A DNA stretch of 32,000 bases from an uncultured archaeon (GTDB lineage Archaea > Iainarchaeota > Iainarchaeia > Iainarchaeales > CSSED10-239): the NCBI GenBank assembly GCA_964463155.1, contig CAYXAY010000002.1, forward strand, positions 1-32,000, read 5' to 3'. Made by a program: the position numbers and the translations under genes. Every line of letters begins with the position of its first letter. Within the stretch, counting starts at the first letter, position 1. A model generated the notes under the pieces. That model made no database searches and had not been told where the DNA came from. It was given only the letters and a program-made list of their open reading frames with translations. Shown here in pieces: positions 4,083 to 28,641 of this stretch.

Positions 4083-4913
4083 ATGACTGAAAAAATAATT
4101 GATGACTTAAATCAAATTAAAGCTAAGGCAAATACTATTTATGACTCATTTGTATATCCTTTGCATAAAACTAATAAAACACAAAGAGCAGATTTTTTAA
4201 AAACACTAAAAATAAGCATTGACAGCCTTGCAAATGAATTAAGCAAACTTTCTGGTTATTCTGTTATTCAGTTCTCAAGAGAGATTGAGCCCGAAAAGGT
4301 AAGGCTGTTTCAGGAAAGGTTTTTAGATATGTCCGGAAGGATTAAACAGATATTGTTCTTTGAAGAAAAAACAGTTGAGGTAGATAATGATTTAGTAAAC
4401 ATTAAAAGAGAAATAACAACGCCAGAAATTTATTTTGAATTAGAGCAAGCAGTAAAGAATGACTTAAATAACCTAATTACATTTATTGACGGCTCCAAAA
4501 AACAAATAGAACATAAATATGCAAACCTTTCTAATCAAAAGCGATCTGTTGAGGAATTGTTAAAGATACTTGAAAAAAAGGAAAATACCATTAAAGAACT
4601 AAACAGAAAGATTGACGAATTATCTTGGATATCTGCAAAAGAAAAAACAAAAGAATCAAGGCTTGCAGGTCTTGAAGAAGACTTATTAAAAAGCTATAAG
4701 GCAAACGAACAAGACTTAACTGTTCTTAAACTTCATGTTTTACATATTGAAAAAACACTTGAAAATATCTTAAGAGACTCAAGACTTTTAGTTCAAGATA
4801 TAAATCATCTTGAAGCACAAAACATACTAAAAGAACAGACCTCTCTAGAGCTAATAAAAGAACTTAAAAAAGAATTGCTTGCAAGCAAATACAACTTGCA
4901 AAATAAAAAGTGA
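4083..4913 (+). CDS. soluble coiled-coil protein, first gene of the ATPase-associated surface locus
   Basis: 276-aa ORF, Lys/Glu/Leu-rich with heptad-like character, no TM segment. Its stop overlaps the next ORF. No family recognised. Confidence 0.65.
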   Translation: MTEKIIDDLNQIKAKANTIYDSFVYPLHKTNKTQRADFLKTLKISIDSLANELSKLSGYSVIQFSREIEPEKVRLFQERFLDMSGRIKQILFFEEKTVEVDNDLVNIKREITTPEIYFELEQAVKNDLNNLITFIDGSKKQIEHKYANLSNQKRSVEELLKILEKKENTIKELNRKIDELSWISAKEKTKESRLAGLEEDLLKSYKANEQDLTVLKLHVLHIEKTLENILRDSRLLVQDINHLEAQNILKEQTSLELIKELKKELLASKYNLQNKK

Positions 4914-4918
4914 TTACT

Positions 4919-6427
4919 ATGGCTGATTTTGACCCATTCTCTGGTGGACACGATTTCTATAAAGATTCCGAAGAAAAAACAAAAAAACCAAGCAACATAA
5001 AAACAACCGAGTTGATTAAAAAAACAATAACTACGGTAATCATTCTTGGAATTGTTGCTATTGTTGTGTATTTCTTATTTTTTAATACTAGAGATATAAG
5101 TTTTGATGTTACTGATAGAGAAGGGAGAAAAATTTCTACTCAAATAGAGATAAGAGAAACAAAAGGCACAAAGAGCCTAAGAATTTCATCAAATGAAAGC
5201 ATAAAATTAAATAAATCAAAAAAATACACTTATAGCGTTAATGCAAGTGGCTATTCCGCAATCAAAGCAGTCCCTATTGATTTTGATAATCCAGAGATTA
5301 AAATAGTCCTTATGAAAAACATAGCGCTGGCAATCAACAGCATTACTTGCCCGGCGCAGGTGTTTTTGGGGCAAAATGCAAAATGCGAACTACAGTTACA
5401 GAACAATAGCCCTAGCCAAGATTATAATTTAGATAATTTGACATTTGAAGCAGATGTAAAAGACTGGCCAGACATCAAGCACAAAACATTTGTTTATGTG
5501 GACAGTTTTAGAGAAGAACTTACAAACGATAGAAAAATAATTCTTGCTGGAAGAAACACCTCAGTCTTTGTTACTTTTGATGTTCCAACAGACAAGAAAT
5601 ATCTTGGAAATAAAAAGATTAGAGCAAGAGTAATTTACACAGATGTAAATAAAGACACAAACTTCAATATTCTCGAAACACCAACTATTAATTTTACTTC
5701 TGATATTTCAAGTCGCAGTAAAATGATAAGCGGGGAAACGATTTCCAAGAAATATACAATTGATAATACAAAAAACAAAACAGACATAAGCGATTTAGAG
5801 TTGTCTATTGTTGCTGATTACCAGCCAAACGATTCAAATATCACGTTTAATTTTAATTCTGATAAAGTGTTTGAACTTGATTATATTTTTATAACTGTTA
5901 ACAAGTCATCCACAAAAACAGGACTAATAACAATCAAATTGCCAAACAACATAAGAGCAGGAAAAATAGAAGGGAAATTATCTTTGAATAGCTCTATGTT
6001 TCCTAAAGCAAAAGATATTAATTTCTCAATAACTGTTGAAGAGCCACCAAATCTTTTTGAAATTAATCTTAGCAAAAGTTCTGAAAACCTAACTTATGAT
6101 TCCAACACCAATAGCACAAACACAAAAACAGTTGATGTTGTTTTTAATAACAAAAACAAGGTTGTTGTTAATATTAATGACGTTTCTGTGAAAAACTCTA
6201 CCGGAACAACAGACTGTAATAATTGGGTTGTTGTGCCTACACTTTACAATAATTATCCTTTGCAACCAAATGAAATACAGTCCGCGCCAATAATCTTAAA
6301 AGGCAATAATCTTTCAGCAACTACTGCAACAACTCCTAGATTTTGTGCAATAAAAGTGGAATATGTTCATCCATTTACTCAAGAGACGATTACGATTTTA
6401 AAAAGTTTAACAATAAATGTAGGGTAA
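4919..6427 (+). CDS. single-pass (N-in) membrane protein with large beta-sandwich-like, sequon-rich ectodomain
   Basis: ATG at 4919 (MADFDPF...); the track starts at GTG 4910. TM is ITTVIILGIVAIVVYFLFF. It has a PEGA-like segment (YTYSVNASGYSAIKAVPIDFDNPEIKIVL) and CARDB-like segments (ITCPAQVFLGQNAKCELQLQNNS...). I count about 18 N-x-S/T sequons by hand. Confidence 0.7.
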   Translation: MADFDPFSGGHDFYKDSEEKTKKPSNIKTTELIKKTITTVIILGIVAIVVYFLFFNTRDISFDVTDREGRKISTQIEIRETKGTKSLRISSNESIKLNKSKKYTYSVNASGYSAIKAVPIDFDNPEIKIVLMKNIALAINSITCPAQVFLGQNAKCELQLQNNSPSQDYNLDNLTFEADVKDWPDIKHKTFVYVDSFREELTNDRKIILAGRNTSVFVTFDVPTDKKYLGNKKIRARVIYTDVNKDTNFNILETPTINFTSDISSRSKMISGETISKKYTIDNTKNKTDISDLELSIVADYQPNDSNITFNFNSDKVFELDYIFITVNKSSTKTGLITIKLPNNIRAGKIEGKLSLNSSMFPKAKDINFSITVEEPPNLFEINLSKSSENLTYDSNTNSTNTKTVDVVFNNKNKVVVNINDVSVKNSTGTTDCNNWVVVPTLYNNYPLQPNEIQSAPIILKGNNLSATTATTPRFCAIKVEYVHPFTQETITILKSLTINVG

Positions 6428-6428
6428 T

Positions 6429-8444
6429 ATGGAGTATATAGATTGGATAATTTCAAGTGTTGTATTTATTACAGTTGTTGCATTGGTACTTTTGGTTATT
6501 TCCAATCTTTTGCCATTAACTAATAATTCCACAGATTTAATTGTTAGTGATGTAATTTATCAAAACCTTTCAAATCCAATTACTGTTTATAATGTTTCTA
6601 TGGATAATAACGATAACGAAGTTTATGGTTATTCAATAAATCTTGACAAGGCCTATGGTAGGGCTGGAAACACCTTTATTATTGATTATGATGAAAAAAC
6701 AATATATGGGACAATAACTAATACTGATAAATTTTACAATTACCAAACAAACATTAATTCCACATATGGTCTTGGCGCACTAATTGACTCAGAGGATTTT
6801 GAGGATTATAATTATGAAGATACTTTTTCTTTAATTGACGGCGCTGCTGAAATCAAATCAGGGATTTTAGAAACAAGTTCAGGAACAAAGATTCAATCTT
6901 TAAATAATTATTCTAGATACCTAGGAACAATTTCCACTGATGCTAATAATGTAATAGTATATGTCAGCTATATTGATGAAGATAATTTTTATTATTGTTC
7001 TTTTGCAAGAGGCAATGTGCAAATTTATCGGCGCATAGCTGGCGGAGAAATAGAAGAAAGAAGCTCTCCTTATCCTATTGAGAATTCATCTGAGTGGAGA
7101 AAACTATATTATGGAAATTATAAGCAAGATAATGATATTTACTTCTTTTGCGGGACAGAAAAAAATTATCTTCAAAACAATGCATCCACAAGTATTGGCG
7201 ACTTTAATCTAGACAATAGTAAGATTCTAATAGAAAGCAAAGATAACAAAACATATATTGATGATTTAAAAATCTATGATAATGTCTATGGAACTAATAT
7301 AAAACCAAGTCCTTCAATAGCATATCCTAGTCTTTCTACAAATTTAGAGGATAATGTAATTATAGTTGATTATAGACATCCGGAGATTGTTGCTACAAAT
7401 CAATTTGTGTTTACGGACAATATCACAAAGTACAATGCAGATTATATTAAGATTTATAAAAATGAAAACGGGCTTACAAAAGCAGTTTTCTTCCCTCATG
7501 CAAAGGAATTTTGGGCAAACATCTATGCGGATAAACCAATAGATATTTACCTTGAATCATCAAATCTTTATAACTTTAAATCACCTAATTTGTCAGGTGT
7601 GTTTAAAAATGAAGGATTAGATAGCTTTGGGAAATATAGAATTCCTTTTACTTTTATTCCTAATAAAAATTATATTGATGATGATGTGGTTTCCTTTAAT
7701 GTAAATTTTAATCTGGCATTTTCTGAAATCTCTGATATTTCAGAAGGCAAGCCCGAAACACCAAAATTGGTTTCATATACCAAAGATCACGGGTTTAAAG
7801 AGATAATGGATTTTAATTTGTACTTTAATTCAGATACCAATCAAGCACATGTGCTTTCTAAATTTCCCACGAGCGATAATGAAAACAACCCAATTTACTT
7901 GTTTATAATATTTAATAATTACAGTATCAGCAATAATTTAACAAAATTGACCCAAACAATTTCTTTTCCTTATGAACAACACACTGCGCAATCAAATACT
8001 AGCGCAATGACTTTTTATAATAATCAAATATATCTTTATAATTTTTATAATTCTAAACATCCGATTCTAAAACAAACAATAATGCTAAACTTGTTTGATA
8101 AAAACGGGCTAATTGACAATAATTGTAATTTTGAAATTACTTCTAATATTACCATTAGATGTAACTCAGATGCTTTGCTTAAAGTAAGATACCGGTTTGA
8201 TATTCCAGAAAATGTTAATCTTAATTATCCTAAATTAACAATAACTAAAACAAAGGAACAAATAATTCCACAGGATGTTTTTGAAAACCTATCCGGTGAT
8301 TCTTTCTATGCTAGAATTCTAAACAAGACATTAGATGTTAACTTCAATCGCGGAGTCAATCCTCCATATAAGAACAATACAAAATTCCTTTACAATAACG
8401 GCTTATTAGAAAATGCAACAATCTTTATTAAACCAATCAATTAG
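6429..8444 (+). CDS. membrane-anchored Asn-rich surface protein with a concanavalin-A/LamG-like lectin domain
   Basis: 671 aa with N-terminal hydrophobic anchor WIISSVVFITVVALVLLVISNLL. Residues about 120-285 follow the LamG/DUF1080-like pattern (DEDNFYYCSFARGNVQIYRRIAGGE...SEWRKLYYGN...IYFFCG...KTYIDDLKIYD). About 19 N-x-S/T sequons by hand count. Confidence 0.7.
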   Translation: MEYIDWIISSVVFITVVALVLLVISNLLPLTNNSTDLIVSDVIYQNLSNPITVYNVSMDNNDNEVYGYSINLDKAYGRAGNTFIIDYDEKTIYGTITNTDKFYNYQTNINSTYGLGALIDSEDFEDYNYEDTFSLIDGAAEIKSGILETSSGTKIQSLNNYSRYLGTISTDANNVIVYVSYIDEDNFYYCSFARGNVQIYRRIAGGEIEERSSPYPIENSSEWRKLYYGNYKQDNDIYFFCGTEKNYLQNNASTSIGDFNLDNSKILIESKDNKTYIDDLKIYDNVYGTNIKPSPSIAYPSLSTNLEDNVIIVDYRHPEIVATNQFVFTDNITKYNADYIKIYKNENGLTKAVFFPHAKEFWANIYADKPIDIYLESSNLYNFKSPNLSGVFKNEGLDSFGKYRIPFTFIPNKNYIDDDVVSFNVNFNLAFSEISDISEGKPETPKLVSYTKDHGFKEIMDFNLYFNSDTNQAHVLSKFPTSDNENNPIYLFIIFNNYSISNNLTKLTQTISFPYEQHTAQSNTSAMTFYNNQIYLYNFYNSKHPILKQTIMLNLFDKNGLIDNNCNFEITSNITIRCNSDALLKVRYRFDIPENVNLNYPKLTITKTKEQIIPQDVFENLSGDSFYARILNKTLDVNFNRGVNPPYKNNTKFLYNNGLLENATIFIKPIN

Positions 8445-8453
8445 AGTTATAAC

Positions 8454-8624
8454 CTATAACCCAAATACCATTCTAAGAATAAGAACCAATATGGCTATCC
8501 CAAGCGCTAGACCAATTACTGTTTCTGGAGATAATTGTGGGCCTCCTGAAGTTTCCTTAAATTTCATTATGCCTATAGCTGAACTTGGACCCTGATTTGT
8601 GTTTTTTATATAATTCATCTTCAT
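8454..8624 (-). CDS. secG: preprotein translocase subunit Sec61-beta (archaeal SecG)
   Basis: Below the ORF-track size cut-off. Hand translation gives MKMNYIKNTNQGPSSAIGIMKFKETSGGPQLSPETVIGLALGIAILVLILRMVFGL*. This matches the archaeal Sec61-beta pattern (SAGL.R...I.P..VIG plus a C-terminal TM). The start may be 8618. Confidence 0.75.
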   Translation of the reverse strand: MKMNYIKNTNQGPSSAIGIMKFKETSGGPQLSPETVIGLALGIAILVLILRMVFGL

Positions 8625-8714
8625 AAATCATCACTATTGACTATATGTATATATAACTTAGAAACCAAAACCTTTTATATTAATCTATTTTATATTTTAA
8701 TGGAGGTAAGGAAT

Positions 8715-9638
8715 ATGCCAGAAAAGATATCAGAATATAAGTGGCTTGTAAGAATTGTTTTTCTTATAATCATAATAATTATTGCATTATTTATTTTTAT
8801 CTGGACAGGAACCATAAGATGTAGAGCAATACCGGGAGGTTGTGGAGTTTATTGGGGGATGATGACTCTTGTAACTGGTAAGCAACAACCAAGCGTTCTT
8901 ATATTATATGACCCTACTGAACAAAAGGGACTAGGAAATCCAGAGTTGTTAAAAGATTTGTTGTCTGATAGAAAAGGTGTTGCAATTCACCCAAGCATTG
9001 CAGACATTAGATATCTAAATTCTGAACAGCTCAAGAACGTAAGTCTTGTTATTGTGGAAAAAGCAAGAAAAATATCTACATTACAATTGCTTACAATAAG
9101 AAACTATATTTCCCAAGGTGGAAGAGTTGTTTGGATTGGCGATGCCGGAACTATTGCAGACACTGACCGAGGAGACATGCTTTATATTGGCATTGCAAAC
9201 CCAAAAGAAAACGGGTGGGTAAGACTTACAGACACAAATGACATTATATTTTTCAATAGAACTATTGGCGTAAATTATATTTCTAATTTTTGTGATGTTA
9301 GAGATTGTGCTGTTGGAGACAAATATACAGGAAAACTTGTTCCAAGCTCTGATACTCACCCATTGACTTATGGGTTAAGGTCAAACCTTCCAATCTATGA
9401 CAATTATTCAATAGTAAAACTTACAGAACCAAACCCTGTGCCATTAAAGATTGATTATGGCTCCAGTTTGTTTGATAAAAAAAAATATAATTACGGAGAC
9501 ATATTTGATGCAATAGTAACATCAAACTCCAATCGCGTGGCTTACTATGCTATACCTCCAGAATATCTTGCAGAGCCCTCTGACAAAGAAAAATATTTTT
9601 CCGTAATATATAACATGTTTGATGGAATGGTAAACTGA
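8715..9638 (+). CDS. single-pass membrane protein, extracytoplasmic domain of unknown function
   Basis: ATG at 8715 is preceded by GGAGGT (the track starts at 8637). TM is WLVRIVFLIIIIIIALFIFIWTG. VLILYDP...GGRVVWIGDAG faintly resembles a flavodoxin/GATase1-like fold, which I could not verify. Confidence 0.65.
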   Translation: MPEKISEYKWLVRIVFLIIIIIIALFIFIWTGTIRCRAIPGGCGVYWGMMTLVTGKQQPSVLILYDPTEQKGLGNPELLKDLLSDRKGVAIHPSIADIRYLNSEQLKNVSLVIVEKARKISTLQLLTIRNYISQGGRVVWIGDAGTIADTDRGDMLYIGIANPKENGWVRLTDTNDIIFFNRTIGVNYISNFCDVRDCAVGDKYTGKLVPSSDTHPLTYGLRSNLPIYDNYSIVKLTEPNPVPLKIDYGSSLFDKKKYNYGDIFDAIVTSNSNRVAYYAIPPEYLAEPSDKEKYFSVIYNMFDGMVN

Positions 9639-9639
9639 T

Positions 9640-9993
9640 ATGACAAAATCATTTGAAGTAGCAATTGCAGTAATCTTGCTACTGTGTTTTGTCTTTTTTT
9701 TGTTTGAAAGCGTAAATCAAGAATATAAGAGCGTGCCTATTCCTGATGATGTAAAATCTCTTGTTTTAAGCAATGCAGAAAACGAGGGGTTTAGACAACT
9801 TGTTCTAAATAAGGATGTGGACAATATTTACTCTACCTTGTATCCGCAGATGGACTATAAATTTAATGTGTCAATATGCGATTGGCTAAACACGGACTGT
9901 CAGACGAAAACCGTTTCGGGGTTTACAAAGAAAAAAGAATTTGTTTATTATTTTGCAGACATAAACAAAACACTGCACTTACAAATGGATTAA
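9640..9993 (+). CDS. small pilin-like protein (short charged N-terminus plus hydrophobic helix)
   Basis: 117 aa, MTKSFEVAIAVILLLCFVFFLFES..., starting 1 nt after the previous stop. Candidate class III signal peptide with atypical Ser at -1. Confidence 0.6.
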   Translation: MTKSFEVAIAVILLLCFVFFLFESVNQEYKSVPIPDDVKSLVLSNAENEGFRQLVLNKDVDNIYSTLYPQMDYKFNVSICDWLNTDCQTKTVSGFTKKKEFVYYFADINKTLHLQMD

Positions 9994-9994
9994 T

Positions 9995-10471
9995 ATGAAG
10001 AAAGGTTTTACATATATTATTACAACAATGATAATCATCATATTAATTTCTAGTATTTTTATAATATTTAATCCAGTTAAAAAAACCGTAAACACAACAC
10101 CTAATATTCTTGCAAAAAATTATGAGATAGAATTTTTAAAACTTTCAAGTTCTAACCCTACAATCCAAGACATAAACAATCTAAACTATGGTTTTAAAAA
10201 ATTTACAAACAGCAATAATTATGATGTAAAAATTTGTAGCATTGTAGAAAACCAAACAAGCATAATCTTAAGCAACTATACTTCAGAAAACTGTAATCTA
10301 GTGATTGATGGGATGTTTAGTGGGGTTGTTTATGATAATAGTACTGTGACAATAGATAGATTTATAAATAATACGAATATATATTTATGTAGTTGTTATT
10401 ATGCCGGTGGCAAAAATGTTTATTATATAGATATTTATAACGAAAATTCAAAAACCATACTAAAAAACTAG
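9995..10471 (+). CDS. putative archaeal type IV pilin-like protein (class III signal peptide)
   Basis: 158 aa. MKKG/FTYIITTMIIIILISSIFIIF fits the FlaFind-style pattern [KRDE][GA][ALIFQMVED][ILMVTAS] followed by a hydrophobic stretch of about 20 aa. The rest is Asn-rich with sequons. Confidence 0.65.
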   Translation: MKKGFTYIITTMIIIILISSIFIIFNPVKKTVNTTPNILAKNYEIEFLKLSSSNPTIQDINNLNYGFKKFTNSNNYDVKICSIVENQTSIILSNYTSENCNLVIDGMFSGVVYDNSTVTIDRFINNTNIYLCSCYYAGGKNVYYIDIYNENSKTILKN

Positions 10472-10482
10472 AGGGAAAAATT

Positions 10483-10833
10483 ATGAAGGATGTAATGGGG
10501 CTTTTAAACCAGATAGAAGAAAAGAGCAACATCATTGTTGCAAAGCTTGAAATCTTAAGATTTGCAGAAGAAGATGCTCAAACAATAAAGAAATCTCTTG
10601 ATGGAATTAAGAAAAAACTTGACAGTGGAGAGATAAGCAAATTCTCATATGCAACAATGCTTGAAATGAACAAAAAAAGAGCAGTAGACAATACCAACTC
10701 CAAAAAGAAAACCTGGGATGAGGTTGCAGAAGCCATTAATGAGATTAGCGATATGCTAAATGATTTAAAAGACACCTATAACTCAAAAACAGAATATGGG
10801 GGTGTAGATGAAATTAAAGGAATCAAGCCTTAA
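10483..10833 (+). CDS. small soluble coiled-coil protein
   Basis: 116 aa with GAGGG Shine-Dalgarno upstream and no TM. Sits immediately upstream of the ATPase gene. Confidence 0.6.
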   Translation: MKDVMGLLNQIEEKSNIIVAKLEILRFAEEDAQTIKKSLDGIKKKLDSGEISKFSYATMLEMNKKRAVDNTNSKKKTWDEVAEAINEISDMLNDLKDTYNSKTEYGGVDEIKGIKP

Positions 10834-10873
10834 ATTCACTATTATACTTTCAAACAGAATATAAAGATGAGCC

Positions 10874-12865
10874 ATGAAAATACCAACTCAAAAGGATGCT
10901 TCAAAGCTTGTTGATCTAATTATTAGTCTTAAAAATATTGAAAACAAAAGAAGTGCTGAAGAAAAGGCAATCTTAGAAAAATTCTATAACGAAGAAATCA
11001 GTTCTAAGGAATTGATGAAAGGACTGAAAGAAAAAAATCTTTTTGTTAAATCAAAACAACTTGATAAGGAATTTGTTAAGGCGATTATTGAATATAATGT
11101 TCTTCTATCACAAATATCTTCAGATATTGACATAACTAACTTACGGAAATTTTATTTGACAAAAAGATCTGTTCTAAAACAATTAATTAAAAGCATATTT
11201 GCATACTCAAAAGAAAAAAGCACAGATCAAAAACAAAAAAAAGTGCAAAAACCAAAACTTGTTGCAATCACTCCGACACATCCTGCAACTCATAAAAATA
11301 TTATAGACAAAATCTTTAGTGGCGGAGAAAAAATAGACACAGAGTCTCTAAAGATTACTGAAAATGCAATGAATACTCCTGCTTTTGAAGAGCCAAAAGA
11401 ACTTTTGCCTGAAAACTACCAAGTATTGATACAAGGTTTTGCATATGCTTTTGTTGAAGAAAAAGAAGAAAATAGAAGGTATGTTGTTGCAGAACCAGAG
11501 CTTACAAAAGAAGAAGAAACGGTGCTTGCCGACACTAAGCAAGAACTTATCAATAAGATTTCATTAATTGACCTAAAGGAAGAATCAGAACTTATTAAAC
11601 ATGTAGACAAGATATTTTCAAAAACTAAACTAAATGCACAACAGCGTTCAAAAATCATGTATTATGTTGGAAGACAAATAAAAGGGCTAGACGCCATTGA
11701 ACCATTGATGCATGACCCATTGATTGAAGATATTGAGTGCGACGGCACAGGGATACCAATATTTATTGTTCACAGAAAATACGGACACCTTGAAACTAAT
11801 ATTATTTTTAATAGCGACAAGGAATTACAACAATTTGTAATCAAGATGGCACACCTAAGTAAAAGTTATGTTTCTTATGCAAGTCCATTACTTGATTCTA
11901 TACTTCCTGATGGCTCCCGTGTCAATGCAACACTAACTAGCAATGTTTCAACTAGAGGTCCAACATTTACTATAAGAAAATTCCCACACAAACCATTAAC
12001 CGCAATTGATTTAATAAAAAGTAAAACTATGAATTCTATGATTGTTGCTTATATCTGGACAATTATGGAATTTCAAAAAACAGCACTTATTATCGGACCA
12101 ACAGCAGGGGGTAAAACCACATTATTAAATATTATTACATCATTTATTCCTCCAGGAAAAAGGGCAGTTTCAATTGAGGATACTAGAGAAATAAATCTTT
12201 TGCTTGACAACTGGATACCACAGGTCACTAGACCTGGCTTTGGACCACCAGACAGCACTGGAAAAAAATATGGAGAAATAACGATGCTTGATCTTATCAA
12301 AGAATCATTCAGACAAAGACCTGATTATCTGGTATTAGGGGAAGTAAGAGGAGAAGAAATGTCTTTAATGTTTCAGGGCATGGCATCAGGACACTGTTGT
12401 CTATCAACAGTGCATGCAAGAAGTATAAATGATCTTGTAAACCGATTAATAACTCCCCCAATATCTCTGGAGCCAAGCCTATTAACATCACTTGATTTAG
12501 TTATAGTTACGGGTTTTCAAGGAGGTAGCGCTGTAAAAAGAATAATCAAGGAACTTGATGAGATTAATGGTTATAATATTAAGGATAACAAGATAGAATA
12601 CAATGTTATTTATAGTGTATCAGATAAATCACAAACAAAAGAAGGAGACTTGTTTACAAATGAACTGCCCATCACCTATAAAAGCGAAATACTTAAGTCT
12701 ATAGCAAAAGAATATGATATTAATATCAATGATTTGTTAGAAATGATTAACAAAAGAATTGCATTTATTAACGAATTAAGCAAAAACCCGCCAAAGGATT
12801 ATGTTGAGTTCAAGCTTGCGATAAACAAATATAAGTTGCAAGAAAAAGAATTATTTGCAAAATAA
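10874..12865 (+). CDS. FlaI/PilB (GspE/VirB11 superfamily) type IV filament assembly ATPase with N-terminal extension
   Basis: YVVAEPELTKEEE motif typical of archaeal FlaI-like ATPases. Walker A GPTAGGKTT (about 12095-12121), Walker B DYLVLGEVRGEE, His box GHCCLSTVHA. 663 aa. Confidence 0.9.
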   Translation: MKIPTQKDASKLVDLIISLKNIENKRSAEEKAILEKFYNEEISSKELMKGLKEKNLFVKSKQLDKEFVKAIIEYNVLLSQISSDIDITNLRKFYLTKRSVLKQLIKSIFAYSKEKSTDQKQKKVQKPKLVAITPTHPATHKNIIDKIFSGGEKIDTESLKITENAMNTPAFEEPKELLPENYQVLIQGFAYAFVEEKEENRRYVVAEPELTKEEETVLADTKQELINKISLIDLKEESELIKHVDKIFSKTKLNAQQRSKIMYYVGRQIKGLDAIEPLMHDPLIEDIECDGTGIPIFIVHRKYGHLETNIIFNSDKELQQFVIKMAHLSKSYVSYASPLLDSILPDGSRVNATLTSNVSTRGPTFTIRKFPHKPLTAIDLIKSKTMNSMIVAYIWTIMEFQKTALIIGPTAGGKTTLLNIITSFIPPGKRAVSIEDTREINLLLDNWIPQVTRPGFGPPDSTGKKYGEITMLDLIKESFRQRPDYLVLGEVRGEEMSLMFQGMASGHCCLSTVHARSINDLVNRLITPPISLEPSLLTSLDLVIVTGFQGGSAVKRIIKELDEINGYNIKDNKIEYNVIYSVSDKSQTKEGDLFTNELPITYKSEILKSIAKEYDININDLLEMINKRIAFINELSKNPPKDYVEFKLAINKYKLQEKELFAK

Positions 12866-12867
12866 AA

Positions 12868-14178
12868 TCATTTAAATGGATCTCTTCTGTTTAATAGATA
12901 TTCTGGATTAATCTCTTTTGATATTGGTTCTTTTTTTGATTTCTTTGTCTTTAGTTTTAATTTTTTCATAAAAATGATTGCGCCAAGAACAACAATTATG
13001 CCTATGATTGCATAACTAACATAATTTGAAATATCTGGAGTTTCTATACTTATCTGTCCTGCTTCTCTTATCTTTTTTACTTGTGTCTTTGCTAGCTTTA
13101 TCTTATTGGTGCTTTCTTTATATCTTCCCTTGTTATATAAATCTTTTATCTGCGCATAGTTTTGGCTTAATTCTGTTACAGTTTTTGTGTCTTTCCAAAG
13201 GTTTATGCTGTTCTCATTTAGTATTTGGTTTATTGCAATGTCTAGTGTGTTTTTTAGTTCGCTGTCTGTTGTGTATAATAGGTTCTTTGCAATGTAATAG
13301 TCTTGTCTTGACTTTAATGTATGAAGAATTATCTCTAGTGGGCTGTTTGGGCCTATCCTTTCAAAATCAGATATTACATTAGCATATACTTGGTTTGTTG
13401 AAGAAACGCTGTCTGCTATTGTTGATATGTCTAAAGACAAGGCTGTTGGCGCCTCAATATAACTTAAAATTGCTCTCTTTTTTGATTCATCAAGATTTTT
13501 GTCCGCAACAACTACTTCTACAATCTCATTAGTGGAATCTCTATAGTTTAGTGATAAAGAAACAAGGTTATTGTATCCTGAAAAAGATGTTTTATAAAGA
13601 TAAATTAGATTCTCTGTGTTTGAACAATCAGAAACATCAATAAACAAAGATTGTTCCTTTTGCACTTTTACTAAGTCGGTCTTAAGGTCTTGGAGTTCTG
13701 TTATCAATAATTGTAATTTATCGTTTGTGTTTTGGCATTTACTGTTTATGCTTGACGAATAGTTTGCCTTGATTATCCCATCAATCTTTGCGGATTTTGA
13801 TTGTAGGTTGACCGTAAGGTTATTCACTTTGTCTATCAATTGCTGTGAAAGAAAATTGTAATTGGTGCCTGCCTTTGTTTTTATATTTCTGTATAGGCGG
13901 GCTGTTCTTATTATTTTCTTTGTTTTTTCATTTGTTTCATAAACTACTGTTCCAGTCTCTGATTCTATAGGTAAGAACATTGTAAGATTTGATTTGGAAT
14001 CTACAAATCCAAAAGTAAAATATTCCTTTCTGTCACAGGTCACAGAATATACTTCGCTGTCAAGAGTTTCTGATGACAACATATATTCCTTTGCTATTCC
14101 TTGTGCTGAATAAAGTGACAGTGCAAATATTTGTGGCAATAACAGCAAAACCATGAATATTAATATTATTTTTTTCAT
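12868..14178 (-). CDS. secreted, C-terminally membrane-anchored protein of unknown function
   Basis: N-terminal signal MKKIILIFMVLLLLPQIFA, a long helical Asn/Ser-rich ectodomain, C-terminal TM YAIIGIIVVLGAIIF plus a basic tail. Its start overlaps the upstream stop (ATGA). Confidence 0.65.
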   Translation of the reverse strand: MKKIILIFMVLLLLPQIFALSLYSAQGIAKEYMLSSETLDSEVYSVTCDRKEYFTFGFVDSKSNLTMFLPIESETGTVVYETNEKTKKIIRTARLYRNIKTKAGTNYNFLSQQLIDKVNNLTVNLQSKSAKIDGIIKANYSSSINSKCQNTNDKLQLLITELQDLKTDLVKVQKEQSLFIDVSDCSNTENLIYLYKTSFSGYNNLVSLSLNYRDSTNEIVEVVVADKNLDESKKRAILSYIEAPTALSLDISTIADSVSSTNQVYANVISDFERIGPNSPLEIILHTLKSRQDYYIAKNLLYTTDSELKNTLDIAINQILNENSINLWKDTKTVTELSQNYAQIKDLYNKGRYKESTNKIKLAKTQVKKIREAGQISIETPDISNYVSYAIIGIIVVLGAIIFMKKLKLKTKKSKKEPISKEINPEYLLNRRDPFK

Positions 14179-15134
14179 TGTCTTTCTTCTTTAAATATTT
14201 TATTAAACAAATATATAGTTGCTGCAAGTATTAAAAATACTATTGATAGATAGCTATAAACTAGAGATGTAAAGATAATTGAAAAGAAAAATGCAAAGTG
14301 GTTTTCAATAATGCCCATAAACGGTATCGCTTTAATTGTGTCAAGTATTTTTGCCTTCACAACTGGCGTGTCCAGGCTTGGTATCGCATCTTTAATCTCG
14401 TCAACCTTCTTTTTTGAGTTTACAGATTCTTTTAGATTGTCCATGAACTGGTGGAAATTAATTGACTCCGGGTCTGTCTTTTTGCTTATTGCTATATATT
14501 CCTCTGATGACATTATGTATTTTAAGTTTGTGTTTGTACATTGTCTGCTTATGGTTTGAGAGGCGTTTATCCAAGGTTCTAAGTCCTCTGCAATAAACAA
14601 GTTAACAATTCCTACTTCAAACTCGTGTACCTTTTCTTTCTGACTTGGTAACAAATAGATTACAGAACACAAAAATACTACAATAACAAAAAAGATTATA
14701 AGTTTTGATAACCATTCTACAGAAAGATTGTACATATTGTCTTTGTCTTTCCTTACTATTAAGCAAAAAATAACATGTGCCACTATGTAAAGTATCAAAA
14801 ACAAGATAAATAAAATATTGAGCCCAAAAAGAATTGAAGATATTAGAGTTGTAAGCGCTAACGACAAGATAACAATAAACAAGCTTTCTGTTTTTGACGA
14901 ATTAAATATCACTGAAAGAATTATTACTGACGTTAATGGAAAGAAAATTAAAAACAAAACAAAATGTGTTGTTGAGATAGAGTTAAATATTGAGGAAAGG
15001 TCAAAGACAACAATTGAATGCATTGTAAGTCCTGAATATACTAGAAAATATATCCAAATAAAGGCAGATATTGCTACGAATGCTGATTTTAGTATATTAT
15101 TCCTGTTTATCATTGTATCGTCTGTCTTGCCCAT
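14175..15134 (-). CDS. polytopic membrane protein of unknown function
   Basis: 319 aa with about 5 N-terminal TM helices, a soluble insert of about 110 aa, and 1-2 C-terminal TM helices. No family recognised. Confidence 0.6.
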   Translation of the reverse strand: MGKTDDTMINRNNILKSAFVAISAFIWIYFLVYSGLTMHSIVVFDLSSIFNSISTTHFVLFLIFFPLTSVIILSVIFNSSKTESLFIVILSLALTTLISSILFGLNILFILFLILYIVAHVIFCLIVRKDKDNMYNLSVEWLSKLIIFFVIVVFLCSVIYLLPSQKEKVHEFEVGIVNLFIAEDLEPWINASQTISRQCTNTNLKYIMSSEEYIAISKKTDPESINFHQFMDNLKESVNSKKKVDEIKDAIPSLDTPVVKAKILDTIKAIPFMGIIENHFAFFFSIIFTSLVYSYLSIVFLILAATIYLFNKIFKEERQ

Positions 15135-19883: not shown

Positions 19884-19893
19884 ACATGGTATT

Positions 19894-20422
19894 ATGTATG
19901 AACTTAAAACTGATAAAATTTATTTAAGAACCATCATTCCTTCAGATGCTACGGAATTATATGAATACATAAAAAACAAATCGGATAATCTGCATAGCGA
20001 TTTTAATTACCCCTTTTCAGTAGATGACTCTTAAAAAATGTTTGAAAGAATGATTCCCGCCAGTCCGGAAAAATATTTCGGATTTACTATTTGTACAGCC
20101 AGTGACATTGTTGGATTTATTTCACTTAGATTAGATTAAAAAAAACAAAAATGCCTAAATCGGGTTGTGAATTGCAAAACCATTTAGAAATAAAGGCCAT
20201 GGTAAAGATGCGGTCAATTTAATCACAGATTTTGGCTTTAAAAACCAGGAACTAAATCTAATTTATTGCAACATAGATTTTGATAATTCCACATCAATTA
20301 ATCTATTTAAAAAGTGTAATTATATATTAGAAGCTAGCCTTAAAGAAAGGCATCTAATTGATGGACAATTCAAAGATTCTGTGATTTTAACTAAATTTAC
20401 TGAGAATTCCCAAAAATCTTAA
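19894..20422 (+). pseudogene. decayed GNAT (RimJ/RimL-like) N-acetyltransferase
   Basis: Conceptual product MYELKTDKIYLRTIIPSDATELYEY...IAKPFRNKGHGKDAVNLITDFGFKNQELNLIYCNIDFDNSTSINLFKKCNYILEASLKERHLIDGQFKDSVIL carries the RxxGxG acetyl-CoA motif. It is interrupted by TAA at 20032, a frameshift in or next to the A8 run at 20137-20145, TAA at 20156 and TGA at 20168. Confidence 0.8.
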
Positions 20423-20694
20423 AAAACAGTACAATTTCAAAATTGTATCTAAAGATAAAAACAAATTAAATGAAAAATTATCTGCAGATGGTTGGATTTG
20501 TAATAATTGTAGCTGTGGTTCTTGTACCTGCACTTGTGCATCCTGTAAATAACTCTATAATATTGTGCGATAATACTTGAAAAAAATATACATTATTAAT
20601 CCATTTGTTAAAGCATTCAATCTTGGTGCCATTATTCTTTATATAATCCATTTAATCAAGAAATTTGTGTTTTAGATTCTAAAGACTATAATAA

Positions 20695-23179: not shown

Positions 23180-23827
23180 TTATAGCATATTAATCAAAAT
23201 AACTGCGACAACTAACAATATCATCAATGCAAGTTTTGAGAAAAAACCTTTGACCTCAAACACAATTTCAGTAAATTCAAAAAGCATTAATATCCAATAG
23301 ATTAGCATATAGATTGTTAATGCCGCAAACAATATTATTCCAATTATGTTTAGTGTTGTTAATGCCGGAAATATTGTTGCACTGTCTACAAGGCCAGGGT
23401 TTACTGATATTGCTTGTATAATCGAGATGATTGCTGGAAAGAAAACTACAATGATTACTGCTGCAAGAACAGAATAGATAATTGTGGTTATTCTAAAGGA
23501 AGCAAGACTCGAGAGAACCTTTTCAAATGGCTTTTTTGGAAGGCCCTTTTTCCCTCTAATAAAATACATTATCAAAAACACAACAATTCCTAAAAGCAAC
23601 CAATTAAGCAGTATTGTAGAATAGATCTGTATCAAGGAATACTTGAATAGCTCTGGGCCCTTGAATAATCCATAGATTAGGATATTTAACAATAACGCAA
23701 TGATTATTACAATTAGGCTTTCAAATAAATTGACTTTTAGAAAGAAAAAATCAACAATCGCCTTTGGGCCTCTTTTTGGCTTATAGGCTTCGTGTAGATT
23801 AATTTCTGATTTTTTTGCTTCTGGCAT
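23180..23827 (-). CDS. five-pass membrane protein (possibly Yip1-domain-like)
   Basis: ATG at 23827 is preceded by AGGTGA; the track's GTG 23836 lies inside that Shine-Dalgarno. Short charged N-terminus followed by about 5 TM helices. The family call is tentative. Confidence 0.55.
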   Translation of the reverse strand: MPEAKKSEINLHEAYKPKRGPKAIVDFFFLKVNLFESLIVIIIALLLNILIYGLFKGPELFKYSLIQIYSTILLNWLLLGIVVFLIMYFIRGKKGLPKKPFEKVLSSLASFRITTIIYSVLAAVIIVVFFPAIISIIQAISVNPGLVDSATIFPALTTLNIIGIILFAALTIYMLIYWILMLFEFTEIVFEVKGFFSKLALMILLVVAVILINML

Positions 23828-23920
23828 TTTTCTCACCTTTAAATAAATTTACATAAATATATTTAGATAAAAGGATATTTAAAGCTTGTGTTGGGTTTTA
23901 AATTATTTTTGTTAATAGTT

Positions 23921-25383: not shown

Positions 25384-26412
25384 CTACAAAAACAAAATAA
25401 AACCAATAACACAGAAAAGAATTTCTACAAGAAGTATACCACAGGTTACTTGCTTTTCTGTGAATCTTTTTTTCCACAGCGTAGGAAGCCACATCATGAT
25501 GTGTGTCCAAGAAAAAATGTGTTTGTACGGCATTTTTAGTGTTCCATCTTCCTGAAGATTACCAAGACTTCTTACTTTTAATTTTCCTCTAAGTTTCAGA
25601 AGTATTTCTATTGCCCAAGGAATAAAAATAAACAAAGCAAAGCTCTCAATGTTGCCAATTATTGCAATACTTGCAAAGGTTGCACCAAAAAGATAAGTTA
25701 ATGAATCTCCTGGTAAAATCTTTGCTGGATACCAATTGTTTAGAAAATAAGGAATAACTGCAAAAAGAGCAACAAAAGAAATAATTGTGGCCTCTGTTCT
25801 TCCATTAACTATTGCAAAAATACCTAACGCAAGCATAACAATTACCATTAATCCCCCCTCTACTCCATTAACACCAGCAAGCATGTTTGTTGAGTTTGTG
25901 AATACTACAAACAATACAGGAACAATAATTAAAGCATACAACATTCCAAAATGAATTGTTCCCAAAAACGGAATTGCCATTGTTGAGTCTCCGGCCATTA
26001 TAGCAACCAAAGGAATTGCTGCCAGGATTGTTAAAAGTGGTTTTAACCATTGTGGGAGACCAACCCTTATTTCTAAATCTCCATAAATGTTTTTTACTGG
26101 CTCTTTACTAATATTAAGATCATCAAAGAAACCAATTAATGTTGCTATCAAAATTGATAAGGTTGTTGTAATAATTATTGTTGTATTAACTTGAAAATAA
26201 AAAGCAGATAACAAAATCAGAAACATAATTCCAATCAAAAAACCAAAGAAAACCGGAACACCTCCGGATTGTGGGAGAGTTGGTTTTTCTTTCTTTTGTT
26301 GGTCAACAGCAATTATCCCTCTTGTAACAAAGAATTTTTTAAATTGAGTAATTATAAAAAAAGAGAAGAAAAAAGAAATTAGACAACTAAATATAAATAT
26401 TACATAATTCAT
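25384..26412 (-). CDS. aglH: glycosyltransferase family 4, dolichyl-phosphate HexNAc-1-phosphate transferase (MraY/WecA/AglH-like)
   Basis: About 10 TM helices with FFDDLN, NMLAGVNGVEGG and PGDSLTY motifs. Lies immediately downstream of aglB. Confidence 0.8.
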   Translation of the reverse strand: MNYVIFIFSCLISFFFSFFIITQFKKFFVTRGIIAVDQQKKEKPTLPQSGGVPVFFGFLIGIMFLILLSAFYFQVNTTIIITTTLSILIATLIGFFDDLNISKEPVKNIYGDLEIRVGLPQWLKPLLTILAAIPLVAIMAGDSTMAIPFLGTIHFGMLYALIIVPVLFVVFTNSTNMLAGVNGVEGGLMVIVMLALGIFAIVNGRTEATIISFVALFAVIPYFLNNWYPAKILPGDSLTYLFGATFASIAIIGNIESFALFIFIPWAIEILLKLRGKLKVRSLGNLQEDGTLKMPYKHIFSWTHIMMWLPTLWKKRFTEKQVTCGILLVEILFCVIGFILFL

Positions 26413-26424
26413 TTATTTTTCACA

Positions 26425-28392
26425 TTAATTTAATTTGTCTTTATTTACTTTGTAAACTCTTACATCTCCTGAAGAATATGCTAAATCAACTATTGGCTCT
26501 AATGTCTTGTCCTTAAACCATATTCTTGTAAATATGGTTTTGTTTGTTGCTGCGTTAAACAAATATATTTTAGAATTGTCCTTTTCCTTATAAAGATAAA
26601 CCGGAATGCCATTCATCACTTGGTCAGGGGTTGTGTGATATTCTGTTTTTATTTTGTTAAGCTCTGACTCTGGAAAAGAATTTCCTTGGCAGTTATAGCT
26701 TACGGCACCTGTTATTGGTGTTACTTGCTTGTAACAGTTCATAGAGATTCCATAATATTTTGTTATCCTTGGATCAGAAAAGTTTGTTGTCCAATAGCCA
26801 TAGATTGCAAATGAGCCCATTCTTGTAAGATATGAAGACTCTACCATTATATAGTCTGAATCGTATTTTTTTAATATTTGTTTTGATTGGTTAATGTCTT
26901 CAGAAATCATAAACAACCCAAAATCACTTGTTGCTTTTGCATCAGAGTTGGTATTGTCGGTGCTTATTTTTCTTTCTGAGAAATATGCTATCCAATGTCC
27001 TTGATCCCACCAATTGAATATCTTGGCATCAGTTGGAGTATTATCATAAACCCAAAACATTGCGTTTTGCCAATTCTTTTCCTCGTGGATTGGAGGGACC
27101 TTGCTCATTACAAAGAAAGTTCCAGCAGCAATTGCTCCAATCAAGAAAATTGCAGAAATTATTACAAATGTTCTTTTAAGATTAATAGATTTGTATTCAA
27201 TATTTTCTGTAGCCCAGAAAAACAAGAAACCAAAACCAGCAGCAATTGGAAGACCAAGAGTGTAAGTAAACTTTAGCTTTGTCCATGCCATAAATCCTGT
27301 AATTAATATCCAGTAAAAGATTATCAAAACAAAGTAATCAATGTTATTATGCTTCTGCTCCTCATGGTCCTTTTCTTTGTTTTTGTATTTGCCAAAAATG
27401 AAATAAAATGGTATTACAAGTAAAGCTAAAAATGGAATAACCACCAAAAGACTATACTTTTCAAGGAAGAACTGTTTACCGGTGTTTTCTTCACCAACTG
27501 TTGCTCCAATAACATCTTGTTCTTCAACAAGAGTTTTATTCACTCTTCCAATATTATCTTCTGAAACTGGGAGATAGTTTGTAATATATTCTGAAGTTCT
27601 GTTGATCCAACCCGTGCCATTATAAATTGTTGTCGAAATTGAAAATAATAAAAAACAAAATAAAAATACTTTTGAAAAAGCAAGTATTTCTTTTTTGTGT
27701 ATCTTCTTTAGCCACATATAAATTAACATAGTAAAGAAATACGCTAACAAAACCAAAGGAATTAATAAAAACATATTCCAAGTTATTGCCATGAGCCAAA
27801 AGAAAAAAGCACCAATTATTGAATAAATTATCCAGTTAAGAAGTTTGTGCCTATTTTTTATTGCAATCACAAAGAAAATAAAACCTAAGACTAACCATAA
27901 GAATCCTAAAGAATCCTCTTCAAAGAATCCTCCCATTGTTCTATAGACAAAAGCAGGAACTGTTGCTGCCATTACTCCCATAGCAACTCCTGTTTTTGTG
28001 TTGTACATTTCTCTACCTAAGAAAAACATAAACATTGCAATTAGTGCTCCAAATATTGCAGGAAGCCATCTTGCATAATCCATTAATAGCCATTTATCAT
28101 AAGCTGCACCAAAAGTAGTAAGTTTATACACGCCAGCCGTAAACTGCCACAAAAATTGTGGCCAAATATCATAAGTAGTTCCCCCTTGTTGATAAAATCC
28201 TAATGGGTCATTTGTTGGCAGATTGCCTTGAACAATATAACTTGTTGCTCGAAGATGCCAGTAAGGGTCAAACTCAAACATGTATTCATATCTTAGAATA
28301 TGTGCTCTAATCCCAAGACCCAAAACAAAAATCAAAACCGCAATTAGAATGACCCCCCAATATTTGGAAAAAAAATGTTTAATCTTATTCAT
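26425..28392 (-). CDS. aglB: dolichyl-(mono/di)phosphooligosaccharide-protein glycosyltransferase AglB (STT3 family)
   Basis: Polytopic N-terminal domain with EFDPYWH and EEDSLGF acidic motifs, and the WWDxG catalytic motif as NWWDQGHW (26998-27012). Short C-terminal soluble domain; 655 aa. Confidence 0.9.
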   Translation of the reverse strand: MNKIKHFFSKYWGVILIAVLIFVLGLGIRAHILRYEYMFEFDPYWHLRATSYIVQGNLPTNDPLGFYQQGGTTYDIWPQFLWQFTAGVYKLTTFGAAYDKWLLMDYARWLPAIFGALIAMFMFFLGREMYNTKTGVAMGVMAATVPAFVYRTMGGFFEEDSLGFLWLVLGFIFFVIAIKNRHKLLNWIIYSIIGAFFFWLMAITWNMFLLIPLVLLAYFFTMLIYMWLKKIHKKEILAFSKVFLFCFLLFSISTTIYNGTGWINRTSEYITNYLPVSEDNIGRVNKTLVEEQDVIGATVGEENTGKQFFLEKYSLLVVIPFLALLVIPFYFIFGKYKNKEKDHEEQKHNNIDYFVLIIFYWILITGFMAWTKLKFTYTLGLPIAAGFGFLFFWATENIEYKSINLKRTFVIISAIFLIGAIAAGTFFVMSKVPPIHEEKNWQNAMFWVYDNTPTDAKIFNWWDQGHWIAYFSERKISTDNTNSDAKATSDFGLFMISEDINQSKQILKKYDSDYIMVESSYLTRMGSFAIYGYWTTNFSDPRITKYYGISMNCYKQVTPITGAVSYNCQGNSFPESELNKIKTEYHTTPDQVMNGIPVYLYKEKDNSKIYLFNAATNKTIFTRIWFKDKTLEPIVDLAYSSGDVRVYKVNKDKLN

Positions 28393-28493: not shown

Positions 28494-28525
28494 AGAAAAA
28501 AATCTTAATAGAATAAGCATTAAAA
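28494..28525 (-). terminator. T-tracts following the 5S rRNA
   Basis: On the minus strand, TTTT follows the 5S 3' end directly (28525-28522), and a T7 run lies at 28502-28496. Confidence 0.4.
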
Positions 28526-28641
28526 GTTAGCAACTAACTTGCTGCTCCAAGAATGAACTTAGTGCAAACAATGTCGGAGATGAACTTTACTTCTGGGTTC
28601 GGAAAGGGTCCAGGTGTTTCTCCATCCCTATGGTCGCTAAC
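28526..28641 (-). rRNA. rrf: 5S ribosomal RNA (stand-alone)
   Basis: Minus strand reads GTTAGCGACCATAGGGATGG...CCTTTCCGAACCCAGAAGTAAAGTT...GTTAGTTGCTAAC. Conserved CCGAAC and GAAGTAAAG elements are present. A 9-bp terminal helix I pairs GTTAGCGAC with GTTGCTAAC. Confidence 0.85.

Follow-up and report, generated by a model that had tools for sequence, protein, structure and literature searches.

In every type IV filament system, the gene pair of a secretion ATPase and a platform protein is regarded as the invariant core. The ground plan of archaeal Tad-like type IV pili (T4P) consists of a secretion ATPase, a TadC-like platform, minor and major pilins, and a peptidase of the PibD/FlaK type that is encoded at an unlinked site (Makarova et al., 2016, PMC4858521). 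The same survey recorded pilin loci in which ATPase and TadC are missing, cases where a duplicated ATPase/tadC operon serves pilin loci at a distance, and peptidase genes that are unlinked, and it described C-terminally anchored S-layer-like proteins as frequent in archaeal T4P loci (PMC4858521, section 14). The T4P islands of DPANN archaea contain the ATPase, TadB, TadC and 'dark-matter' pilins (Makarova, Wolf & Koonin, 2019, PMC6393860, Fig. 2A). Here we describe a locus in a 32-kb stretch of contig CAYXAY010000002.1 from an uncultured archaeon (the window), in which the ATPase gene has no platform gene beside it. Genes g1 to g8 are on the plus strand, and Sec61-beta, g9 and g10 are on the minus strand. 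The conserved core is the g4-g5-g6-g7-ATPase operon at 8715–12865, which is probably the motor and minor-pilin operon of a DPANN-type, Tad/FlaI-like T4P system of an Iainarchaeum-type archaeon. New here is that the ATPase–platform gene pair is stably broken, clade-wide, in a DPANN pilus locus that can otherwise be recognised.

The ATPase gene, g8 (10874–12865, plus strand; 663 amino acids), encodes a FlaI/GspE/TadA-type secretion ATPase that matched the Pfam family T2SSE at 2.6e-29. The Walker A motif (GPTAGGKTT, 408–416), Asp box (E435–E439), Walker B motif (D484–E495) and His box (G506–H514) were all invariant in a 20-member family alignment. An earlier note on this DNA, made from its letters only, had called the enzyme a complete FlaI/PilB-type ATPase with intact Walker A, Walker B and His box; the T2SSE match and the invariant motifs agree with this, and g8 is shown to be an intact hexameric-type secretion ATPase. 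Its closest relatives in the PDB were Archaeoglobus afGspE (2OAP, 4e-94), Sulfolobus FlaI (4II7, 4e-68) and CpaF (1e-34), and it belongs to the same ATPase family as the FlaI/ArlI of S. acidocaldarius and the Archaeoglobus GspE, with all catalytic boxes in common. Unlike the archaellum motor, however, g8 scored 316 bits on the NCBIfam FlaI model, under the 550-bit cut-off, and has an extra N-terminal region of ~185 amino acids (10874–11430). An archaellum locus should combine the FlaI equivalog score with FlaH, FlaJ, FlaF/FlaG and archaellins, none of which was seen in the window; no other match to the archaellum families was found among the window proteins with Pfam or among the ten locus proteins with NCBIfam. 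The N-terminal extension is clade-specific (coverage of ~72% against the sister ATPases described below), and the ATPases of the relatives are 646–747 amino acids long. Nothing notable in the way of tandem repeats was found in the N-terminal region of the window ATPase. In one related locus (L090), this region contains a small 24-nucleotide repeat (10325–10375). Repeats have been described within a 'secretion-related ATPase' of a Crystal Geyser Diapherotrite in the Forterrea genome paper (PMC5905446, Fig. 1F), and that ATPase may belong to the g8 family.

The closest relatives of g8 came from metagenome-assembled genomes (MAGs) labelled 'archaeon', Candidatus Iainarchaeum or Diapherotrites; this type IV filament-type locus belongs to a DPANN archaeon. 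Seventeen of these loci (L001–L014, L023, L089 and L090) are referred to as the close clade, and counts of 18 include the window; some members are represented by contigs of 0.66–0.98 Mb. Where the contig reaches far enough, the gene order is Sec61-beta on the minus strand, then g4, g5, g6, g7 and the ATPase gene, then g9, g10, the methionine aminopeptidase (MetAP) gene and g12 in convergent orientation, and finally L11, NusG, SecE and FtsZ. The synteny of the core from g4 to g8 was held in 16–17 of the 17 related loci, within which the identity of the ATPase is 55–76%.

The next ATPase clade is also labelled Iainarchaeum and is 48–53% identical to g8. Identities to the homologous ATPases of the sister DPANN T4P islands as a whole (L015–L041; Iainarchaeum, Undinarchaeota, Aenigmatarchaeota and Woesearchaeota) are 42–53%. 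The sister gene order, as read from the next Iainarchaeum clade and the other three lineages, begins with canonical pilins and a large surface protein; then come a g5-like, a g6-like and one further pilin-like protein, a small coiled-coil protein, the ATPase and two polytopic proteins of ~290 amino acids. The latter two match Pfam T2SSF (1e-14 to 1e-21) and make up a split platform of the TadB/TadC type. The window locus resembles these islands in its ATPase, in the g5, g6 and g7 families, whose genes closely precede the ATPase gene and keep the same order, in the large surface protein upstream, and in pilin-like proteins that Pfam does not detect. It differs from them in that no TadB/TadC pair follows the ATPase gene immediately downstream, that the clade-specific genes g4 and g9 have been gained, that the ATPase gene abuts the MetAP operon, and that major pilins with a KG[IV]SPLIA N-terminus are lacking.

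The difference in the platform was quantified for those loci that have 3 kb or more of sequence downstream. A T2SSF gene lies within 1 kb of the ATPase gene in 46 of 51 other DPANN loci, whereas this was the case in none of the 18 close-clade loci, and extending the distance to 10 kb did not add any among these 18. T2SSF profiles built from the sister proteins had matches in 58 distant loci but in neither the window nor the close clade, where relaxed thresholds of the T2SSF profiles gave only noise. Within the 32-kb window, no Pfam match to T2SSF or Peptidase_A24 was obtained for any of the larger open reading frames (ORFs), and the DPANN-specific T2SSF profiles did not match any six-frame ORF of at least 40 amino acids. 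The earlier observations of an ATPase gene without an adjacent platform gene, and of no T2SSF-like or A24-like ORF anywhere in the 32 kb, are therefore both upheld. Because the absence of the platform is clade-wide, it is no accident of assembly. The absence of an A24 peptidase from the window, which the earlier note had presented as noteworthy, is ordinary, since the PibD/FlaK genes of archaea are in most cases unlinked (PMC4858521, section 15). The major pilins of the sister islands show the same pattern as the platform, as the N-terminus [KR][GA]xSPxxA (KG[IV]SPLIA) was present in 43 other loci and in none of 16 close-clade loci, including the window. The close-clade locus is consequently one that retains the motor and minor components and has neither the platform nor the major pilins. 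A DPANN locus type that bears TadB and TadC has been sketched already (PMC6393860, Fig. 2A); no T2SSF gene lies near the window locus.

Several traits are common to the window locus and the euryarchaeal/Tad-like T4P loci: the ATPase is of the FlaI/GspE family, a prepilin is of class III, minor components are pilin-like, a small coiled-coil subunit is intracellular, a surface protein with a C-terminal anchor is encoded close by, and the peptidase gene is outside the locus. The window locus is unlike them in that the ATPase–TadC gene pair, the normally invariant core, is broken, with the secretion ATPase present and the adjacent T2SSF platform absent from the window and all 17 related loci. Approximately 10% of the other DPANN loci also have an ATPase without an adjacent T2SSF gene. 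Such FlaI-like ATPases were seen in L062 and L066 (~9.9–11.4 kb) and in L063 and L070 (~9.1–11.5 kb), and two of them are orphans among housekeeping genes. Two loci labelled Nanohalarchaeota have a protein of 206–236 amino acids with five transmembrane (TM) segments directly upstream of the ATPase, and this protein may be either a short TadC or a peptidase resembling PibD.

Essential parts being missing from the locus, it might be a decaying remnant, in which an orphan ATPase and minor pilins without function persist after loss of the platform, and DPANN genomes are undergoing reduction. We consider a remnant very unlikely, because the five core genes are intact, without frameshifts, in 16–17 of the 17 loci over the whole range of ATPase divergence, all catalytic motifs are invariant, and the junctions are tight and operon-like. 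A relic would hardly persist over such divergence in streamlined genomes.

The slot that the T2SSF genes occupy in the sister loci is filled here, on the opposite strand, by g9 (12868–14178, minus strand; 436 amino acids), which is followed by g10 (14175–15134, minus strand; 319 amino acids), a polytopic membrane protein. Both come directly after the ATPase gene in all 17 related loci, and several g9 orthologs gave marginal matches to a T2SSF profile (E-values of 0.02–0.3). The two proteins might accordingly be a highly diverged TadB/TadC pair inverted in place, comparable to the unrecognisable 4–5-TM partners of the ATPases of Thermoproteales clade 4D. The polytopic nature of g10 is in line with such a pair, as is its AlphaFold2 model (predicted local distance difference test score 79.8), which is all-helical and has a helical insert of ~100 amino acids. 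The profile comparisons, however, speak strongly against it. In hhalign comparisons with T2SSF, the g10 family reached a probability of 3%, a profile from 103 representatives reached 2–6% and g9 reached 2–3%, while the positive control, a TadB-like against a TadC-like profile, gave 100%. A Foldseek search of the PDB with the g10 model had a best E-value of 0.37 (TM-score 0.18), and no PilC, GspF or FlaJ chain was listed among its matches. Moreover, g9 is a surface protein with a signal peptide, its bulk outside the cell and a single C-terminal TM anchor, a topology that is incompatible with T2SSF and equals that of the C-terminally anchored S-layer-like proteins of archaeal T4P loci. We therefore rejected both g10 as a diverged FlaJ/TadC and g9 as a platform remnant, and the inverted pair is extremely improbable.

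The distribution of the g10 family is in keeping with this rejection. The family comprises 111 clusters at 50% identity, of ~330-amino-acid polytopic proteins without Pfam domains. Among five distant members that were checked (including those in L085, L086, L091 and L092), three directly follow MetAP and a fourth lies 3.5 kb downstream of it, and no ATPase gene was found near any of the five. Nor does a g10-family gene occur within 10 kb of the ATPase gene in the sister loci. A 4–5-TM protein of the clade 4D type would be expected to co-occur specifically with the ATPase, and outside the close clade g10 co-occurs with MetAP and not with ATPases; it is a MetAP-linked membrane protein and not the platform. 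The operon g12-MetAP-g10-g9, of which g9 is the last gene, is close to SecE, Sec61-beta and ribosomal genes. As these housekeeping neighbours are equally syntenic, synteny alone is no proof of a functional link of g9 and g10 to the ATPase. Orthologs of g9 (30–63% identity) were present in all 17 close loci and none was found outside the close clade. A comparison of g9 with the PDB gave no meaningful relative, its one match (E-value 0.02) being at chance level, and it is uncertain whether g9 belongs to the machine. Another polytopic protein, of 218 amino acids (23180–23836, minus strand), was considered as a platform or peptidase; it had no Pfam match and an hhalign probability of <1% against T2SSF, while no A24 profile comparison was made. 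Its gene is downstream of PolB and is conserved in the close clade.

The Thermoproteales T4P clades 4D and 4E (PMC4858521, section 14) provide a precedent for a TadC that cannot be recognised or has its gene at another site, and for pilin loci apart from ATPase and TadC. The clade 4D loci themselves contain the ATPase and a 4–5-TM protein and no pilins, which is the opposite of the window locus, where the sole polytopic neighbour is MetAP-linked, and the lineages are unrelated.

Among the shared components, g6 (9995–10471, plus strand; 158 amino acids) is a prepilin with a class III signal peptide. Its N-terminus, MKKG|FTYIITT, is a classical class III cleavage site (the vertical line denotes the scissile bond), and the Woesearchaeota counterpart begins with KRG|QFYII. 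The family motif is [KR][GAS]|[QF]xY followed by a hydrophobic stretch, and relatives were recovered by jackhmmer in 48 ATPase loci. Retention of the KKG|F site implies that an A24 peptidase is still active somewhere in the genome. The neighboring g5 (9640–9993, plus strand; 117 amino acids), with relatives in 32 ATPase loci across DPANN (jackhmmer), is pilin-like and leaderless. It starts with MTKSFEVAIAV, and the one invariant residue of its family is the Glu at position 6. In the alignment, Woesearchaeal and Nanoarchaeal members of the family have a KK[GA] leader that places this Glu at +6, and g5 of both the close clade and the sister Iainarchaeum clade begins at the position that corresponds to mature +1 (MTKSFE). 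Across lineages, the g5 and g6 families had no Pfam match and no PDB match.

The large surface protein g3 (6429–8444, plus strand; 671 amino acids) also has a leaderless pilin-like N-terminus, MEYIDWIISS. Its orthologs (609–961 amino acids) conserve M-[EDQ]-[YH]-IDWI[IV]S, and in a Woesearchaeal protein this motif is preceded by a KKG leader (KKG|LSYIDWAIS). No earlier start codon is available between the preceding stop codon and the start of these ORFs, so that the missing leader is a fact of the sequence. In both Iainarchaeum-type clades, g5 and g3 are 'born processed', their start corresponding to the mature +1 position of leadered homologs, with g6 still carrying a cleavage site. The sister clade combines a leaderless g5 with T2SSF, and leaderlessness is therefore unconnected to the missing platform. 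Orthologs in the g3 slot have only the N-terminus and the core in common. Laminin_G_3 or DUF2341 domains were found in some of them only; in L003 the domain forms an extra C-terminal module, which the window g3 is without. The beta-sandwich or lectin-like ectodomains that the earlier note ascribed to the window proteins were not demonstrated. Judged from these sequence features, g3 is a candidate tip adhesin or membrane-anchored adhesin. PDB profile searches with the g3, g4, g5, g6 and g9 families yielded nothing significant (best E-value 0.02 or worse).

The third shared component, g7 (10483–10833, plus strand; 116 amino acids), is a soluble coiled-coil protein encoded directly upstream of the ATPase. 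Orthologs of 47–89% identity are present in all 17 close loci, and jackhmmer recovered the window g7 at 3e-29 when seeded with the product of the small gene that precedes the sister-clade ATPase gene; in L032 and L037, the relatives of g7 lie downstream of the ATPase gene. These results show that g7, a small coiled-coil protein of the cytoplasm, accompanies the ATPase and is conserved in several DPANN lineages. The homologous ATPase and the pilin-like and coiled-coil families shared in conserved order (g5, g6 and g7) are thus those of the DPANN T4P islands. It had been stated that none of the seven partner proteins could be placed in a family; none does reach a curated cut-off in Pfam or NCBIfam, but g5, g6 and g7 have homologs in the sister DPANN T4P loci.

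Most likely, the platform and the major-pilin genes are not truly dispensable but lie at another place in the genome, and we favor, as the better-supported account, a T4P sub-locus that is completed in trans by platform, pilin and peptidase genes at other sites. That platform and major pilins are missing together suggests the relocation of a gene block, and the lack of the pilins speaks for a partial locus with its complement in trans and against a self-contained non-canonical machine. This qualifies the earlier suggestion of a non-canonical surface machine, of which the type IV filament character and the lack of an adjacent platform stand. Relocation is further favored by the retained peptidase site of g6 and by the intactness of the ATPase and its partners across 55–76% identity. 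The T2SSF-less ATPases in part of the other DPANN loci argue in the same direction, as do the dispersed T4P genes documented in archaea (PMC4858521).

Several results weigh against relocation. No T2SSF, major-pilin or A24 gene of the close clade was found. The search seeded with the sister-clade T2SSF profile gave 45 proteins, all of which were assigned to sister-clade ATPase contigs and none to the close clade; it reaches only relatives of ~42% identity or more and is weak negative evidence on relocation. A second ATPase paralog from close-clade assemblies was not present among the best 80 genome loci. An old arrangement that is stable throughout the clade would fit a system working without a canonical platform as well. 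Under such a true loss of the platform, which corresponds to the reading of the earlier note, the whole Iainarchaeum-type clade would be without T2SSF and perhaps without major pilins. The ATPase would run with the bitopic g4 (with or without g2), the leaderless pilin-like g5 and g3 and the coiled-coil adaptor g7, and g3, g5 and g6 would be assembled or displayed via non-homologous membrane partners, with no need of a peptidase for g5 and g3. The absence of T2SSF within 10 kb in all 18 loci, the failure to assign any sister-like T2SSF protein to close-clade contigs, the gain of the clade-specific g4 coinciding with the absence of the platform, the leaderless g5 and g3, and the clade-specific extension of the ATPase would all be accommodated by this scenario. 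It is nevertheless unlikely. The proteins g1 to g7 are all soluble or single-pass and none is polytopic, g4 offers only ~10 cytoplasmic residues for contacting the ATPase, a leaderless g5 is also found in the sister clade that has T2SSF, the concurrent absence of the major pilins suggests block relocation, and g6 retains its peptidase site. No FlaI/GspE/TadA-type ATPase, and hence none of the g8 family, is known to function without a polytopic T2SSF partner (cf. PMC4858521, introduction).

If the locus is completed in trans, a rearrangement would have put the ATPase gene against the MetAP operon and parted it from the platform and major-pilin genes, which would now occupy other genomic sites, as would an unlinked gene for an A24 peptidase. 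The peptidase would trim g6 and the major pilins. The g8 hexamer, together with g7, would dock on the trans-encoded TadB/C platform, so that pilins could be drawn from the membrane into the filament, and g5, g6 and g3 may be minor subunits, subunits that prime the filament, or components of a base anchored in the membrane. Through g3 and its lectin-bearing orthologs, the cell would adhere to a host or a surface, while g4 would be a clade-specific extracytoplasmic accessory and g1 and g2 an optional accessory module.

If the platform has merely been relocated, a useful annotation rule follows: g5, g6 and g7 can be annotated as pilus components throughout DPANN and g10 as MetAP-linked and unrelated to the pilus, and partial loci are to be expected. 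With g3, there is also a candidate host-attachment adhesin in a probably symbiotic lineage, and pilin-like proteins that begin at what corresponds to mature +1 pose a minor, testable puzzle with regard to peptidase independence. Should complete genomes prove to be truly without T2SSF, the assumption that such ATPases need a T2SSF platform would be overturned, and a true loss would make this the first platform-independent machine of the type IV filament class.

The eight plus-strand ORFs described in the earlier note were all present at the coordinates it gave, with junctions from a 4-nucleotide overlap to a 40-nucleotide gap and with the ATPase stop 2 nucleotides from the stop of the convergent g9. 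The genes were judged to be real, every partner having orthologs in related MAGs. Their description as one eight-gene unit did not hold, since g1 and g2 occur in only 6 of the 17 related loci, g3 is variable, and the two blocks are split by a Sec61-beta gene (8454–8624, minus strand; 56 amino acids). This housekeeping gene, which is no part of the machine, lies in the 270-nucleotide gap between the two plus-strand blocks and had been overlooked. The gene at the same position in relatives matches PF03911, and Sec61-beta is kept in 16 of the 17 close loci; its conservation at that position indicates that the two blocks are separate transcription units. As to whether the partners are conserved with the ATPase in related genomes, this is true of the core genes g4 to g7 but not of g1 and g2, nor of the variable g3.

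The first gene of the ATPase operon, g4 (8715–9638, plus strand; 307 amino acids), encodes an N-terminally anchored protein, and its start at the ATG at 8715 fits the N-termini of the orthologs. It was present in 16 of the 17 close loci (45–81% identity) and in none of the sister loci. Four cysteines (C36, C43, C193 and C198) are invariant. A sub-threshold match to ABC_transp_aux in six of ten orthologs raises the possibility of a GIFT/GldG-like alpha/beta domain; the PDB profile search with the g4 family detected no relative, and the single-sequence AlphaFold2 model had a confidence score of 45.5 on the scale used for g10, too low for the model to be of use. The comparison of the loci shows g4 to be a clade-specific protein, with a predicted membrane anchor and predicted co-transcription with g5–g8.

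The optional upstream module consists of g1 (4083–4913, plus strand; 276 amino acids), a soluble, helical protein of the coiled-coil type without a TM segment, and g2 (4910–6427, plus strand; 505 amino acids), a bitopic protein with a single hydrophobic segment at approximately residues 40–60 and a large ectodomain. Neither has a family match in Pfam or NCBIfam. Orthologs of g1 (38–69% identity) were found in six of the 17 close loci, and those of g2 (27–47% identity) in the same six, always together with g1. The short cytoplasmic N-terminus of g2 contains a D-P-F-S/G-G motif before the TM segment, which is conserved in L001, L005, L008, L009 and L014 and through which a cytoplasmic partner, for instance g1, may dock. 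The ectodomains of g2 and g3 are Asn-rich and bear N-x-S/T sequons, so that N-glycosylation may be possible. Genes for a GT4 (AglH-like) protein and the AglB oligosaccharyltransferase are located at 25384–28392 on the minus strand, 12 kb downstream of the locus.

The G+C content of the window is ~31%, and its archaeal housekeeping genes include those for TBP, PolB, FtsZ, Nre, AglB and aIF-2B. An ORF-poor gap of ~810 nucleotides (19884–20694) separates aIF-2B and PolB, which abut directly in relatives. Rfam had no match in this gap, and two short ORF fragments at 19894–20034 and 20038–20139 look by eye as if they may derive from a broken acetyltransferase gene. The genes for tRNA-Thr(CGU) and tRNA-Leu(UAG) are at 512–583 on the minus strand and 2254–2336 on the plus strand, respectively, and the 5S rRNA gene stands alone at 28525–28641 on the minus strand, between AglB and TBP.

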